Origin: a virus
Taxonomy: Duplodnaviria; Heunggongvirae; Uroviricota; Caudoviricetes
Direction: 5' to 3' (one strand)
IMG/VR virus record: IMGVR_UViG_2623620501_000013
Length of the DNA: 32,923 nucleotides
Shown piece after piece: positions 22,996-32,923 of the stretch; position 1 is the stretch's first letter, and the number at the start of each line of letters is the position of its first letter. A program made the translations under genes and the position numbers. The notes beneath the pieces were generated by a model. It was not told the origin of the DNA, searched no databases, and worked only from the letters and a program-made list of their open reading frames with translations.

Positions 22996-23463
22996 TTAAT
23001 CAAAAAGCCCCACCTGGGTGGGGCTTTTCAGCGAAGTCTGTTTTTGTCGTCGGTGTATCAGTTGCCATGCGTACCGGTCTGAAATGCCGTAACGGGGACA
23101 GAGCAGTGCCAGCGCCTGCCGGTGTGAGCATCCGCCTTTTACATGCTGCTGTAAATCAGCCATAAAACGGGTGTTACGCAGGGCACGTAACGCATGATCG
23201 CAACGGGGAATGTAAAACGGTGCGCCGCCAAGAAAACGGATCAGTTTGTTGATTTCGTCTTCGGTCAGCACGTCATGTAACAGGGCATGGACACCGCCGG
23301 TGCGTTCGGCGTGTACGCCGGTTTTACCGCTTAACGTCACGCCACCAAAAGAACGAATCAACCGGGTCAGGGCGGGGAAGCCAATCACGCTAATCAGTTG
23401 CTGCACGGAATCGGGCAGCAGTGCCTGCGCATCGCGAAGATCTGTTTCACTGAAGGTCTGCAT
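22996..23463 (-). CDS. Mor/C-family transcriptional activator
   Basis: 155 aa with a C-terminal helix-turn-helix-like segment (...RYGISDRYAWQLIHRR...); position between gemA-like and lysis genes as in Mu. Confidence 0.65.
   Translation of the reverse strand: MQTFSETDLRDAQALLPDSVQQLISVIGFPALTRLIRSFGGVTLSGKTGVHAERTGGVHALLHDVLTEDEINKLIRFLGGAPFYIPRCDHALRALRNTRFMADLQQHVKGGCSHRQALALLCPRYGISDRYAWQLIHRRQKQTSLKSPTQVGLFD
23003..23028 (-). terminator. Intrinsic terminator overlapping the 3' end of the Mor/C-like gene
   Basis: Near-perfect palindrome AAAAGCCCCACC-TG-GGTGGGGCTTTT; on the minus-strand RNA the stem is followed by UUUUUGAUUAAUG. Confidence 0.6.
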
Positions 23464-27195: not shown

Positions 27196-27906
27196 TTACA
27201 CCCTCCCCAGTGCCAGCGGTCTGTTGCTCTGACCATTAACCCCCTGATGCAGTCTGGCGTTTTTCCCGGCGATAAAACCGGCAGTAGCGGCAAACTCTGC
27301 ACCCCGACACGCTTTAGCTGTGCGCATATCCCCGTCGCGCAGCCCCTTAGTGCTGTGCAGGTTCTTTCTGTAAAGCTCAAGGCGGCTTTTTTCTTCCGGG
27401 GAGACGTCATACACCGCAATGACATCACGGGCACCAAAGACCCAGCCTTCGCAGAACTGGTCGCCACGGGCTACCCGCGTGGACGGACCACAACGTTTGC
27501 AGTGTTTATCCTGATATTTCTTGCGCTCTGCCATCATCTGACGGGAAAGCACATCAAACGCGTAAGCCGCGATTTCCGGGCGGCTGTCAGAGCCATAAAA
27601 ACGCACGTGACGTTTGAGTGAACCAGAAGCCCGGTATTCGCCGGATATGTAACACTCGACACCGAAGGCTTTACAGACCAGGTCACACAGGATGTGCATA
27701 TAACGCGGCGGTGTACTGGCATCACTCGGCGCACCCGCGCTGGCAGCTTCCTGAATGTCGAACAATTCAGCGTCGTTTTCGCTGATGCCATGCTGGCGCA
27801 TATAAGCCTGGGCTTTTGCAATAGCGTTAGCGGCTTCTTCCGGGCTTGATGTTCCTCTGGCAAGGCGTAACAGTTTTTTGATTTTGGCAATGTATTTATC
27901 TTTCAT
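27196..27906 (-). CDS. DUF2786-like phage protein with Cys-rich C-terminal region
   Basis: 236 aa; N-terminal ...KIKKLLRLARGTSSPEEAANAIAKAQAYMRQHGI... matches the DUF2786 pattern as I recall; C-terminal region has several CxxC-type cysteines. Confidence 0.5.
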   Translation of the reverse strand: MKDKYIAKIKKLLRLARGTSSPEEAANAIAKAQAYMRQHGISENDAELFDIQEAASAGAPSDASTPPRYMHILCDLVCKAFGVECYISGEYRASGSLKRHVRFYGSDSRPEIAAYAFDVLSRQMMAERKKYQDKHCKRCGPSTRVARGDQFCEGWVFGARDVIAVYDVSPEEKSRLELYRKNLHSTKGLRDGDMRTAKACRGAEFAATAGFIAGKNARLHQGVNGQSNRPLALGRV

Positions 27907-28184
27907 GGTCGTCTGAACCTCAGCATCCTGAATTCTGAATTACGCAACTTCCGGCACGGCCTTCAGGAACGTGGGGAGTTCGTTCTGGCTGCGGCGCTGG
28001 ATGAACATCTGCTGTCGATTGAGAACTGGTCGCAAGACGATTAAAACAAACGATTGTCAGATTAATTTCGCGGGCGAATTTTTTTTGCTTAGCGATATTC
28101 ATAAATAAACTTCCTCAGATTCAGGCGTAAGCCAGCCCCGGCGGGTTTACGCCTGTTTTAAATAACAATTAAAAACAAATTAAA

Positions 28185-28376
28185 TTAATGCGGTGCTTTC
28201 AGTGTTTCGACTTTTACGAAATAAGGCTCGACATTAATTTCAACCACACAACCACATTTAAAATCTCTGACAGGTGAAACGGTTTTCACCACACGACCAC
28301 CACGCAACGCCGGATGTGCAGTGTGCATGAAGCGAGTCCCTACCGGATACTGCTTATTAAAGTTCTTCGCATTCAT
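28185..28376 (-). CDS. Hypothetical protein
   Basis: 63 aa; AAGGA site upstream of the ATG at 28376; overlaps the ANR-like gene end by 20 nt. Confidence 0.4.
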   Translation of the reverse strand: MNAKNFNKQYPVGTRFMHTAHPALRGGRVVKTVSPVRDFKCGCVVEINVEPYFVKVETLKAPH

Positions 28377-28590
28377 GGCGTGGCTTCCATCCTTTCAGGT
28401 GAGCATTAGCACAGAACTCGGCCCGGTGTTCCGCCCAGATGCGGCGCAGGGTGCTACACGGGCTTTGTGCTGCCTTACGCCACAGCTTTTCAGCCTCGGC
28501 ATAATCGCCGCGTTGTTCTGCTCTGGACGCGCCCAGCGAATACGCCGCGCAACTATTTCCGGCTCTGTACTCTTTGATATCCTGATGCAT
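28357..28590 (-). CDS. ANR-like small regulator (AraC negative regulator family candidate)
   Basis: Start ATG at 28590, 1 nt after the upstream stop (MHQDIKEYRAG...); contains ...RGDYAEAEKLWRKAAQ...RIWAEHRAEFCA..., resembling ANR-family small proteins as I recall. Confidence 0.45.
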   Translation of the reverse strand: MHQDIKEYRAGNSCAAYSLGASRAEQRGDYAEAEKLWRKAAQSPCSTLRRIWAEHRAEFCANAHLKGWKPRHECEEL

Positions 28591-28591
28591 G

Positions 28592-29236
28592 TTAAACCCC
28601 TGCAATATCAAGCGGGATTGCGCGGTATTCAGCAGAATCACCGACGCGCTCATACACGCGGATATAGCTTTTGCTGCCAATTACCTGGACGGCTTCACCA
28701 ATCAGTTTCATGGCGTTATCCCAGCGTTCCTCCGTAATATCGAGACGACGCAGAGCCAGAACGCGCCCGGTGTTAATGTTGCCTTCCTTGTCCGTGCTGA
28801 ATGCTTCACTGATGATGGCTTTAATTTCAGGGCGCGCTCCTTCCGTCCAGTCAGCCAGACAGTCATCAATCAGTGCCTTCGCGGTCTGAATGCGTTCATC
28901 AAGCGCGATACGGTCCTGCATGGCGCGCTGAATCTTGTAACGCCCGTCAAAGCTGTAAAGTGTGATATTCCCTTTTTTACCGCCTTTCACAGCGCCGTAT
29001 TTCTCCGCCGACAGGTCAATAAATGCCTGAATATCACCAAACGCACGCAGTTTCAGTTCACGCAGTGAGGCAGAGGCAGCAATCACCATCTCCACAAGCT
29101 CACCGACCAGCTGCTCACGGTCGCGGTCAATATCTTTGATAAGACTTTCAGGCGTCATCACACCACGGGCATCAACCCAGTAGCCTTCCTGCACTTTATT
29201 TTTTGTATATTGCTTAACTTTATTTTCAGTCGTCAT
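28592..29236 (-). CDS. DUF3164-like conserved Mu-like early-region protein
   Basis: 214 aa; size and position in the semi-essential early region; family assignment is from memory. Confidence 0.5.
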   Translation of the reverse strand: MTTENKVKQYTKNKVQEGYWVDARGVMTPESLIKDIDRDREQLVGELVEMVIAASASLRELKLRAFGDIQAFIDLSAEKYGAVKGGKKGNITLYSFDGRYKIQRAMQDRIALDERIQTAKALIDDCLADWTEGARPEIKAIISEAFSTDKEGNINTGRVLALRRLDITEERWDNAMKLIGEAVQVIGSKSYIRVYERVGDSAEYRAIPLDIAGV

Positions 29237-29265
29237 AATTAAATTACCTCAGTGATATTTACAGA

Positions 29266-29481
29266 TTAATGTGTGTTATGTGCGCGAGGCGCAACATTTT
29301 CAGAAAAAAGATTCACGCCGTTATAGTCATTTCTGAGCGTTTCCTTGATAGCATCATGTAATCTTGTTGCCACCTGAAACTCCTTTTCGGAAGCTCCGTC
29401 CTTCGAATAACTCCCCGTGGTCTGGGTTAAAACACAGCCTTTTTCATCGGTATAGATAATTACTTCTAACTTAACCGCCAT
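29266..29481 (-). CDS. Hypothetical early protein
   Basis: 71 aa ORF 12 nt downstream of the preceding small gene. Confidence 0.45.
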   Translation of the reverse strand: MAVKLEVIIYTDEKGCVLTQTTGSYSKDGASEKEFQVATRLHDAIKETLRNDYNGVNLFSENVAPRAHNTH

Positions 29482-29493
29482 TCTGATTTCCTC

Positions 29494-29733
29494 TTATTGC
29501 CATACGACGGTGCAGCCGTCGATACAGGACGTTTTCACCACGCGGCGCAGGCCGCTGAATGTCTGGATGATTTCCGTTACCGGCCATACAGGGCCGCCCA
29601 CGGGCGGGCAGGCATAAACCACAGGTAAACGGTGATGTTGCCCAGTTACGCGACCGCCGGTGGTGTGGATGGCCACACGGGCACGGGAACGGACGGCGTT
29701 AATGGTCTGCTTGTCCATCATCTTGTTCTCCAT
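29494..29733 (-). CDS. Hypothetical early protein coupled to the B-like gene (Mu kil position)
   Basis: 79 aa; its ATG overlaps the MuB-like stop (TGATG). Confidence 0.45.
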   Translation of the reverse strand: MENKMMDKQTINAVRSRARVAIHTTGGRVTGQHHRLPVVYACPPVGGPVWPVTEIIQTFSGLRRVVKTSCIDGCTVVWQ

Positions 29734-30626
29734 CAGTGAATTAACATTTCTGCGAATTTATCAATGGCCTGCACACTGACCGGTGCATCGCTGATATCAC
29801 AAATCCGGTACACACCGCGAGCCAGTTTGAACAGGCGGCGGGCATTACCCAGTGAGCGTGCGTAGAGCGCCTCGCTGATTTCCGGTTCTGCTGCTTCCGG
29901 CATCAGCCCGGTAGCTATCTGGTTAAAATCTTCCTGCGACAGCGTATCGCCCAGGTTAAGCGCCAGCGCCACACGGCTGTATAACTGGGCGAACTCACCG
30001 CGACGTCCCTTGAGGTTAATCAGAAGGCGTGGCATACCCGCCAGGACAATCCCGATACCCGCTTTGTCATGCAGACGGCGCAGAACCTCCAGTGCGCGAT
30101 AGGGGAGCAGTTCAGCCTCGTCCACCATCAGCAGGCGACCGGAATCACGCAGTTCTCGCACACATGCATCAATCAGTTCGTGGATATTGCCGCGAACTTT
30201 TACCCCCAGCTGGCGGCACAGCTCCTCAAGCAGTGTTCTGGCTGTATAGCCCGGGTCGGCTTCAATCAGGACCGCATCCCGGTTTCTGGCGGCGTATTCA
30301 CGCAGAATCATTGTTTTGCCAAGACCTGCCGCGCCATACAGTACGCAGATTTCACATTCCAGGTGAGCATAGGCCAACACCTCCAGTCCTTTGGCAGCCA
30401 TACCGGTGGCAACAAATTTCGCTTTAATACGGCGGCTGTTTTCCTTTTCCCGCTCACGGGTCACAAAGGCAGAAATGCGTTCTTCAATATCAGCCATATC
30501 GCCCTGATATTTACCCTGTAAATACTGGTTGATAACGGCGCTGCTACGACCAATAGCACGGGCGACGTGGGTTTGCGTATAGCCGCGACGGGCCATTACG
30601 TCATTTAATTGCGTAATTAAACTCAT
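29733..30626 (-). CDS. MuB-like transposition ATPase
   Basis: 297 aa; N-terminal helix-turn-helix-like region, Walker A GAAGLGKT, Walker B-like LLMVDEAE; directly downstream of the transposase. Confidence 0.8.
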   Translation of the reverse strand: MSLITQLNDVMARRGYTQTHVARAIGRSSAVINQYLQGKYQGDMADIEERISAFVTREREKENSRRIKAKFVATGMAAKGLEVLAYAHLECEICVLYGAAGLGKTMILREYAARNRDAVLIEADPGYTARTLLEELCRQLGVKVRGNIHELIDACVRELRDSGRLLMVDEAELLPYRALEVLRRLHDKAGIGIVLAGMPRLLINLKGRRGEFAQLYSRVALALNLGDTLSQEDFNQIATGLMPEAAEPEISEALYARSLGNARRLFKLARGVYRICDISDAPVSVQAIDKFAEMLIH

Positions 30627-30644
30627 AATTAAATACCTTTTAAA

Positions 30645-32687
30645 TTAACGGTTGTTTGTGCCGTTTTTCTTTAAATTGCGTTCGCGTTCAGATGCGAATA
30701 AATAAAGTTCTTCTTTTTCCTTTTTCTCCGGGCGTTCCAGTCCATATCCCAGATTAAAGTCAGGCTTCTGCGTAATGGCCGGGGTAAGCTCGCGTTTAGC
30801 CTCTTCGATTTTCTGCGTGGCCCGTGCAATGCGGCCCTTGACGCGTTTCTCCAGTTTTTGTTCGATAACTGGTTTAGCGAAGGCATCAACCTTGTTACCG
30901 TTCCAGATGGCATCGCAGATATAAGAGCCATCAGCCCGCCGGACAATGACGCTGTTTGCATCATGAATATCGTAACTGACCCTGACTTCATTCCCGTGCT
31001 CTGCGGCCAGATCATATGAGTAATAAATATTGTTGAATAACTGAATTTCCCCGCGAAATGTTTTGCGCGTCACTTCCGGCCTGAACATTTCATGCAGTTC
31101 TTCCGGCGACAGGAAATCAATTTCAACATTCTGCTCTTTTATCAGTTTCCGGCGATACGCTGCCGGGCTGTAATGCTCGCCATCCTCTTTGCGAGGAAGG
31201 CTGCTGTGTGGCCGGTTGTTATAGCGTCTGACCTCCAGCTCTATGGCTGCCATCAGTTGCTCAAAGGTAGGGATTTCATCCCTCGCCTTAACCTGCCGTT
31301 TTGTCAGCTCTTTCCCTTTGTGGGTGGCCTTAATGGCTGACTGCATAATCCGTTGCTGCATCATTACGGTTTCCTTGTCTGCATCCCTTGCGCAGTACGT
31401 TTGGAAACTCAGGGCCACGTCTTTGGGTATTTCCTTGTTAACCCTTTCAATCACCCCGCGCCCCTGCGGGTTACCTGGTATCCCCGTGTGATGTTCCACA
31501 CCCAGACGGGGCAGAATCCCGGTAATATCGGCATCAAGCACCAGGTTTTTTTCGCCGCCCCCGTTATCGGAGTAATAAATCAGCGGTATCCCGTGCTGTG
31601 CCATGCCGTAACGTAACGCATCAGCAACGGCTATCACGTTCTCCGACAGGGACAGTGACCAGCCCACAATAAAGCGTTGTCCTGCATCCATAACCAGCGT
31701 CACTTCTGGCCGGAAAATATTGCCGGTCAGGGGGTTAAACGCGGTCATTTTCATACAGTGACCATCCCCGACCCATACCGCATTAACCGGTAATGATGTC
31801 CACTCGCGCCGCACAAAGGGATTGAGCGAACGCCAGGCTGAACCTGTGGAGCGGAAACGCTCTTTAACAATCACCGGGACGCTGCTTAACACCCGTCTTA
31901 CTGCGTGAACTGAAGGCAGTGCCGCCAGCATTCCCGCATCGTTCGCGTGTTTTTCATGCCACCAGGCTGAAAACTCGCGATACGCATATTCAACGGTCGG
32001 GCGCTTCCATGAGCGATAGAACATAAAGAAATCGCTCAACCACCAGACCTGCTCCCACGGTGTTCCCTTATGATGACCGGGAGCCAGTAACGCCAGTAAC
32101 TGATTGGCATCACCGCGCGCCATCACCCAGCTGGAGTACCAACTATCCAGGCTGCCTGTGCTGACACCGGTTCGCTTTCCCTGACGTGCATTTGCAGTAT
32201 TAGCTGCTTCGATAATGCGGTCAGGTAACGCCCCCATGCGCACACCATCAACGATGTGCTTTAACGCGGCCTTCCTTGTCATTCCGGCGTATTCACGCAG
32301 TTTATGCACTTCAGTAGCCAGCAATATCCGCGCATCAGCGATGGCCTTTTGCTTGTCAGTCAGTGCCTGGACTTCGCGTAATGCCAGTTCCGGGCATTTG
32401 ACCATCACCTCCAGTTCATCGCGAACGGCGACGTTTTTAACTGCCTTCTGCTCAACCACGGCGGGCAGTTGCGTATCTTCCAGGACCTGATGGGTCAGGC
32501 GCTTACGTAAAACTTTCTGCGCTTCAGCGGGCAGGCAGTCGATGTGATACTCGAATGCTTTGGTGCCTTCACGCTTGCGCTTCCATTCCGGGTGCGTCTC
32601 TGTGATCCGATTGAGCGTCCAGCGCACCCCCTGAACTGTACCGGGCAAACCAGGAAGACCGGCCAGCTCATTGGCTGAATAAAACAT
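30645..32687 (-). CDS. MuA-like DDE transposase
   Basis: 680 aa; size, position after the Ner-like gene (TAATG overlap) and translation consistent with the Mu transposase family. Confidence 0.85.
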   Translation of the reverse strand: MFYSANELAGLPGLPGTVQGVRWTLNRITETHPEWKRKREGTKAFEYHIDCLPAEAQKVLRKRLTHQVLEDTQLPAVVEQKAVKNVAVRDELEVMVKCPELALREVQALTDKQKAIADARILLATEVHKLREYAGMTRKAALKHIVDGVRMGALPDRIIEAANTANARQGKRTGVSTGSLDSWYSSWVMARGDANQLLALLAPGHHKGTPWEQVWWLSDFFMFYRSWKRPTVEYAYREFSAWWHEKHANDAGMLAALPSVHAVRRVLSSVPVIVKERFRSTGSAWRSLNPFVRREWTSLPVNAVWVGDGHCMKMTAFNPLTGNIFRPEVTLVMDAGQRFIVGWSLSLSENVIAVADALRYGMAQHGIPLIYYSDNGGGEKNLVLDADITGILPRLGVEHHTGIPGNPQGRGVIERVNKEIPKDVALSFQTYCARDADKETVMMQQRIMQSAIKATHKGKELTKRQVKARDEIPTFEQLMAAIELEVRRYNNRPHSSLPRKEDGEHYSPAAYRRKLIKEQNVEIDFLSPEELHEMFRPEVTRKTFRGEIQLFNNIYYSYDLAAEHGNEVRVSYDIHDANSVIVRRADGSYICDAIWNGNKVDAFAKPVIEQKLEKRVKGRIARATQKIEEAKRELTPAITQKPDFNLGYGLERPEKKEKEELYLFASERERNLKKNGTNNR

Positions 32688-32923
32688 TACGCCGCCTTAC
32701 TGGCATACCGGCTTGGCCAGATCTCCGCAGGTTCCACACCAATAGCATCGGCTATGATGCGTTCATATTTAGGGCATGAGCGATACAGTGCATTTTTTAA
32801 AGAGTCTTTTTTTAGACCAGCGCGTTCAGAAAGTTCACGCAATGTAAAACCTTTGGTGTGCACAGCGGCAACGATGTACTCGCGGTGCCAGTCTTTGTTC
32901 ATTACTTCATTTCTAACCATCAT
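32687..32923 (-). CDS. ner: Ner-like DNA-binding regulator
   Basis: 78 aa containing ...KDWHR... and ...EIWPSRY..., matching Mu Ner-family proteins; the start is at the window edge, so upstream signals are not visible. Confidence 0.75.
   Translation of the reverse strand: MMVRNEVMNKDWHREYIVAAVHTKGFTLRELSERAGLKKDSLKNALYRSCPKYERIIADAIGVEPAEIWPSRYASKAA

Follow-up and report, generated by a model that had tools for sequence, protein, structure and literature searches.

The family of AraC negative regulators (ANRs) groups proteins of less than 10 kDa with three conserved helices and a signature composed of A10, E14, A22, W26, A29, W43 and R47 (Santiago et al. 2016, PMC4983702). Its prototype, the AggR-activated regulator Aar, binds residues 69-181 of AggR, which form the dimerisation region, blocking in this manner both the dimerisation and the DNA binding of AggR; for Aar as well as Cnr2, the contact involves the central/dimerisation region of the AraC/XylS regulator (PMC4983702). 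According to mutagenesis, helices 2 and 3 of Aar are required for its activity. In addition, Aar binds H-NS, as seen by pull-down and EMSA, and the H-NS-DNA complexes are altered or removed, depending on the promoter (PMC5570504).

The orthologue Rnr, or RegA-negative regulator, has been studied in both EPEC and C. rodentium, including mouse infection (PMC10148876, PMC4038620). The C. rodentium protein, ROD_02851, represses the gene of the AraC-family activator RegA (regA), as well as the RegA regulon; it is also able to replace Aar in aggR repression, and its loss prolongs the colonisation of mice (PMC4038620). In EPEC E2348/69, the rnr locus corresponds to FM180568.1 2,721,409-2,721,642 (E2348C_2635) (Rodriguez-Valverde et al. 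2023, PMC10148876). The EPEC protein alters the expression of more than 500 genes and acts as a repressor of LEE and of the type III secretion system; it can also take the place of Aar in repressing the AggR-dependent fimbriae (AafA), Rnr and Aar being interchangeable (PMC10148876). In two-hybrid assays it interacts with both H-NS and Ler, so that its directly shown partners belong to the H-NS family and not to the AraC proteins; as far as the available text of that paper extends, two-hybrid assays are the only direct-binding data for Rnr (PMC10148876).

The gene described here is found in a stretch of 32,923 nucleotides from a Caudoviricetes record (IMGVR_UViG_2623620501_000013), hereafter the window. 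It occupies 28357..28590 on the minus strand, with the ATG at 28590-28588 and the stop codon at 28357-28359, and encodes MHQDIKEYRAGNSCAAYSLGASRAEQRGDYAEAEKLWRKAAQSPCSTLRRIWAEHRAEFCANAHLKGWKPRHECEEL, a protein of 77 aa and 8.88 kDa with a pI of 8.4. A sequence-only reading of this DNA had described a 78-aa ANR-like protein; the open reading frame was confirmed, but the product has 77 aa, as the count of 78 includes the stop codon, and both motifs quoted in that reading are present in the 77-aa protein. Its assignment as an rnr orthologue of the ANR family draws on the match to NF033650, the identity with EPEC Rnr, the AlphaFold2 model and dN/dS.

At the sequence level, every feature that defines an ANR is found in this protein. 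The family assignment, for which a profile-HMM search had been proposed as a check, is upheld by NCBIfam NF033650 (ANR_neg_reg), which has a curated cutoff of 32 bits and is matched with 57.3 bits (E 1e-15) over model positions 3-52 of 54; EPEC Rnr has nearly the same score (56.9), and the prototype Aar one that is not much higher (65.7). A full-length match was also obtained to phrog_2227 (E 2.4e-27), a phage family with unassigned function. With 77 aa and 8.88 kDa, the protein is within the size limit of the family, and all seven signature residues are present as A21, E25, A33, W37, A40, W52 and R56, although the loop preceding W52 is two residues shorter than in the published signature. These positions, together with C60, are invariant or nearly so in an alignment of 35 sequences that includes relatives down to 26% identity. 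The AlphaFold2 model has three helices (residues 3-27, 30-42 and 47-66) and no beta structure, with a mean pLDDT of 80.3, rising to 90-95 over residues 21-60. As in other ANRs, no DNA-binding domain was detected, with neither an HTH nor any other Pfam domain of this kind at E <= 1. Aar from the EAEC 042 plasmid pAA shares 38% identity over 53 aa with the window protein (BLASTP E 5e-7), and the hhalign probability for this pair is 96%.

The relationship with EPEC Rnr is much closer, as the two proteins have equal length and 73 of their 77 residues are identical (95%). The four substitutions, S13R, R71P, C74R and E76T, are located outside the near-invariant core of residues 14-68 and outside helices 2 and 3, those needed for Aar activity, which makes the extrapolation from the studied orthologues to the window allele a strong one. 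The DNA is 97% identical to the E2348/69 region over 571 bp, and the published rnr primers (PMC10148876) match the window gene and the end of the upstream DUF3164 gene. In the RefSeq sequence of E2348/69, the same Mu-like prophage, at 2,716-2,727 kb, is inserted in eutC; there, too, DUF3164 comes first, the ANR gene begins 1 nt past its stop, and the 63-aa ORF, which overlaps the ANR gene, and DUF2786 follow. Among 5426 complete E. coli genomes, RefSeq applies the name "ANR family transcriptional regulator" to this gene in 58 (~1%), and five of these share at least 99% identity with the window over a 1.6-kb query. Judging by these comparisons, the window gene would be an allele of a named and experimentally studied regulator and is already annotated so; consequently, given the RefSeq naming and the studied orthologue, the family call adds nothing new. 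The further proposal that a copy carried by a prophage could reprogram the AraC-type regulators of its host appears to be borne out as well, since the repression of RegA, AggR and virulence regulons published for Rnr and the C. rodentium homologue means that it has in effect already been shown for orthologues.

The window gene is tightly linked to both of its neighbours. The DUF3164 gene (28592..29236, minus strand, 214 aa; PF11363, E 2.8e-79; phrog_846) ends with TAA at 28592-28594, leaving exactly one base, 28591, before the rnr ATG, in agreement with the 1-nt distance noticed in the sequence-only reading; the junction reads GGGGTTTAA-C-ATG (28591..28603, minus strand). A Shine-Dalgarno-like GGGG is located 6-9 nt 5' of the ATG, within the coding end of DUF3164. 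EPEC E2348/69 has the identical junction, and a spacing of 1-2 nt between DUF3164 or Gam and the ANR gene is also seen at the distant Mu-like loci L025, L037, L040 and L041. This arrangement suggests translational coupling of rnr to the upstream gene.

Regarding selection, the window allele was compared with 17 others, taken from IMG/VR prophage contigs and EPEC, giving dN/dS values of 0.02-0.33 (dS 0.16-0.58, dN 0.006-0.09). Almost all replacements are placed at residues 1-13 or 69-77, the latter segment overlapping the next gene, while within the core of residues 14-68 only three positions (31, 32 and 58) carry replacements among the E. coli-type alleles. A chance ORF was ruled out by the NF033650 match, the phrog_2227 match and dN/dS, and the long plus-strand ORFs at 28321..28737 and 28589..29068 are shadows of minus-strand genes.

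At its 3' end, rnr shares 20 nt with the following gene (28185..28376, minus strand), a conserved basic ORF of 63 aa and pI 9.8, which matches phrog_5591 (E 5.7e-39) and no Pfam or NCBIfam family. Among the family loci, this ORF usually follows and overlaps the ANR gene, and the 20-nt overlap is kept in L025 (8224-8415) and L041. Moreover, an in-frame fusion of ANR and the 63-aa ORF, with 136 aa (P0016; L037:8001-8411, L037-L039), is present in 12 contigs from several assemblies of one Mu-like lineage, which suggests joint action. The 63-aa protein is a likely functional partner of the ANR protein.

All window genes are on the minus strand and together form a Mu-like transposable prophage, with the order ner-like HTH, MuA, MuB, Kil, 71-aa ORF, DUF3164, ANR, 63-aa ORF, DUF2786, GemA/gp16 and Mor, followed by the lysis, head and tail genes. 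The MuA transposase (30645..32687) and the MuB ATPase (29733..30626) were identified from the ORF list, PGAP and PHROG. Directly after MuB, a 79-aa ORF (29494..29733) matches the septation inhibitor Kil in PHROG (phrog_2679, E 1.1e-38), while PGAP calls the same ORF a hypothetical protein. The 71-aa ORF (29266..29481) lies just downstream of the MuA-MuB-Kil span (29494..32687), and a 60-aa ORF without PHROG match is located at 27920..28102. With MuA, MuB, Kil and Mor (22996..23463) all placed on the minus strand around the ANR gene, its location in the phage early region, also proposed from the sequence alone, is confirmed: the genes of the early operon are tightly packed, and rnr is reached after about 4 kb of it.

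Two intervals of this operon vary in length by approximately 0.1-1.5 kb among prophages that are otherwise near-identical, one between the 63-aa ORF and DUF2786 (27907..28184 and its equivalents in L003-L020) and the other between Kil and DUF3164. Both have the appearance of hot spots where small cargo genes are acquired. The chromosomal sites also differ, as the same prophage is inserted within an RHS region in GF75 and in eutC in E2348/69, and two of the 62 matches are on plasmids; the differing insertion sites and the plasmid copies are consistent with a recently active transposable phage.

No AraC-family gene is present in the 33-kb window, nor among the PGAP products of the whole prophage and its flanks, checked in a genome that carries this prophage and shows 99.9% identity over the 1.6-kb query. 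The element therefore lacks the classic ANR/AraC feedback pair, and the feature typical of the Aar/Cnr loci, an adjacent AraC virulence gene that activates the ANR, is not shared by the window gene. The Mu-like early-operon setting is barely mentioned in the ANR papers examined here and constitutes the less-noted point of this locus: the word "phage" does not occur in the 2023 Rnr paper (PMC10148876), and a literature search of openly accessible journals found no paper placing Rnr in a Mu-like prophage early operon.

The explanation that we consider highly probable is that the window gene is an allele of rnr, whose ANR protein would act only by protein-protein contacts with host transcription regulators and would be produced through coupled translation in the early operon. 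By analogy with its orthologues, a three-helix, TPR-like module devoid of DNA-binding capacity would titrate or remodel regulators of the H-NS and AraC/XylS families. Its translation would be coupled to that of the upstream DUF3164 gene, from a long early transcript of the Mu-like prophage, so that the protein would be abundant early in lytic growth, while the lysogen would contain little of it, from low or leaky expression. [quoted passage not shown]

One observation does not fit easily with this explanation. The early operon of Mu is repressed in lysogens, and a sigma-70 consensus scan of 27900-32923, strict and covering one promoter type, detected no coding-strand site from ner to the gene. 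However, the published rnr deletion phenotypes were obtained in lysogens and demand expression in that state. Such expression is not readily reconciled with the position of rnr, embedded in a repressor-controlled operon without a promoter-like site of its own.

An alternative, plausible though held tentatively, agrees with the rnr explanation on much of the biochemistry and differs in the biological purpose. The selected role would be centred on the phage: the early neutralisation or remodelling of H-NS-family silencing, and perhaps of other regulators, during lytic transposition-replication. The neighbouring gene for DNA-end protection or recombination (DUF3164, Gam or RecT) and the 63-aa partner would take part in it, and the virulence effects in lysogens would be a by-product of leaky expression. 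Such a purpose is in accord with all of the observations. H-NS represses the Mu early promoter, and T7 gp5.5, T4 Arn and LUZ24 gp4 (Mip) are small early phage proteins that bind an H-NS-family silencer and change its DNA complexes (PMC8501957).

The distribution of the family also argues for a phage role. Ten of ten further members whose loci were inspected (31-69% identity) lie in prophage early regions, and the further members that were rescored all pass NF033650; however, these loci were picked by their similarity to the window protein and come from two or three prophage lineages, and the count is therefore an indication and not a census. The trio DUF3164-ANR-orf63 is contiguous in 19 of 19 IMG/VR contigs, despite flanks that vary by insertions and deletions. 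In the Mu-like loci L025, L037 and L041, the ANR gene follows DUF3164; moreover, L025 and L041, from Yersinia and other Mu-like prophages, have the same order of DUF3164, ANR, 63-aa ORF and DUF2786 and keep the 20-nt overlap at 32-39% ANR identity. Among isolated phages, NF033650-positive genes are carried by the Mu-like Mannheimia phage vB_MhM_3927AP2, two genes after DUF3164, and by Vibrio phage 1.181.O, with an ANR-family gene being carried by a set of Vibrio phages of roughly 50 kb. Among 50,697 phage records, neither megablast with the 1.6-kb query nor tblastn with the protein gave a match at E <= 1e-3, and distant homologues appeared only at E <= 10, being then confirmed by HMM. Phages of Aeromonas and Klebsiella also contribute ANR-annotated proteins to the fold matches in BFVD. 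In addition, purifying selection acts on the gene in a wide range of host pathotypes, with chicken-meat and mouse isolates among the hosts.

Other observations stand against this role. Aar and Cnr adjoin AraC genes on virulence plasmids and not on phages (PMC4038620). The gene is absent from phage Mu and from the other Escherichia phage records of the collection, so the Mu lifestyle does not depend on it.

The gene preceding ANR is not always DUF3164. In L040 (5630-6392), Mu Gam (PF07352) occupies the DUF3164 slot, and its stop is again separated by 1 nt from the start of the ANR gene (69% identical), indicating that DUF3164 may be a positional, perhaps functional, analogue of the DNA-end-binding protein Gam. 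In Pantoea-type lambdoid prophages (L022-L031, L042-L043), the ANR gene closes a GamL-DUF3799-RecT-ANR block, with xis and int further on; the RecT-ANR block is a second, independent link of ANR genes to phage recombination modules. In the Mannheimia phage (NC_028766.1; L035:5686-5886), the ANR gene has 48 aa and ends at an in-frame stop, past which the similarity runs on (DWAGQRAVFCKRMHKKPF); a pseudogene, read-through or an error in the sequence could account for it. When L025, L037 and L041 are compared with the window, the divergence of the ANR protein among distant Mu-like phages far outpaces that of the neighbouring proteins, as its identity is 32-39% in L025 and L041, against 69-75% for DUF3164, 60% for MuB and 52-54% for orf63, while strong purifying selection is observed within the E. 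coli lineage. This pattern would fit an adaptation to different host targets.

Extended to the whole family, the phage-centred proposal would make ANRs first of all host-takeover factors of phage early operons, in the form of a mobile module of ANR and the basic 63-aa protein, at times fused, hooked translationally to DUF3164, Gam or RecT and selected against H-NS silencing or other regulators, with the virulence roles of Rnr and Aar/Cnr being secondary. We regard this generalisation as less likely than not.

A second alternative departs further from the rnr explanation, proposing a TPR-like adaptor or chaperone for phage proteins (DUF3164, the 63-aa protein or the transpososome) that would not act on host regulators. 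The TPR-like character of the protein is seen at several levels. The pattern G-x-Y-x-x-A-x-x-L-W-x-K-A is reminiscent of one TPR hairpin with a capping helix behind it, and an exhaustive profile search matched many long TPR proteins via residues 11-43; however, there is one unit and no repeat array, and the best scores with Pfam TPR_2, TPR_14 and TPR_10 are 14.1-15.8 bits, below the gathering cutoffs of 23.5-27.5. TPR/MIT/Sel1-like folds were matched with TM 0.55-0.71, none significantly (Foldseek E-values >0.01), and the search against the PDB retrieved only generic MIT/TPR-like three-helix bundles (best E 0.5) and no ANR or Hha structure. The tight coupling of the ANR gene to both neighbours and the natural fusion with the 63-aa ORF would also be in line with an adaptor. 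Nevertheless, the upstream partner is exchangeable between DUF3164, Gam and RecT, and the orthologue, supplied alone in trans, represses the LEE as well as the AggR-dependent fimbriae and is positive in two-hybrid assays with H-NS and Ler. Because it works alone in trans, a purely intra-phage adaptor role is unlikely, and we regard this alternative as improbable.

Weakest is the suggestion, which we consider very improbable, that the true product is a 107-aa form starting at TTG 28680: the frame is open back to that codon, and some gene callers give homologues of 94-98 aa and extend P0002, P0004, P0008 and P0010 likewise, but the extension lies entirely within the DUF3164 coding sequence in a different frame, the NF033650 match starts only at residue 15 of the short form, PGAP annotates the 77-aa version, the published functional Rnr constructs begin with MHQDIKEY and the Shine-Dalgarno-like run stands in front of the short-form ATG.

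Returning to the 77-aa product as an allele of rnr, the locus implies that a regulator by which attaching-effacing pathogens have their type III secretion and their colonisation dampened rides on a randomly inserting Mu-like phage. Its carriage by a transposable phage, in 58 of 5426 genomes and in hosts of many kinds, means that the trait can move horizontally, and the expression of rnr should depend on the state of the phage repressor. What this locus adds to the ANR literature examined here is the Mu-like early-operon setting, the adjacency to Gam, DUF3164 or RecT across phages and the conserved 63-aa partner.

The known systems compared with the window protein include the co-regulators Hha/YmoA/Cnu, all-helical proteins of approximately 8 kDa that do not bind DNA and contact the N-terminal oligomerisation region of H-NS. 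The small size, the all-helical structure and the absence of DNA binding are shared; in contrast, silencing is strengthened by Hha, while the effect of Aar at some promoters is a weaker or altered binding of H-NS. The window protein has no match to the Hha/YmoA family in Pfam at E <= 1, nor among the top 50 Foldseek matches in the PDB. T7 gp5.5, T4 Arn and LUZ24 gp4 are, similarly, small early proteins encoded by phages, and Rnr and Aar bind H-NS too; however, no sequence or fold relationship to them was detected, and what they have in common is a functional category and not a family.

With Aar and the Cnr of ETEC, the window protein shares the NCBIfam family, the signature residues and the three-helix plan. 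Differently from it, Aar of EAEC 042 is a 63-aa protein whose gene lies on a plasmid, surrounded by IS elements and close to aggR, and its AraC partner activates it, while the window protein has a helix 2-3 loop two residues shorter and longer N- and C-terminal tails, and its gene has no AraC gene nearby, being embedded in a phage early operon. The closest system is EPEC Rnr (E2348C_2635), from which the locus differs in the site of the prophage, in eutC there and in the RHS region in the window-like genome GF75, and possibly in the host, as that of the window may be without LEE, Ler, PerA and RegA. The mass of 8.88 kDa matches those of ROD_02851 (8.9 kDa reported) and the clade-2 ANRs (8.5-9.05 kDa), and, as in EPEC, the gene starts 1 nt after DUF3164, overlaps the 63-aa ORF and is carried by the same Mu-like backbone.
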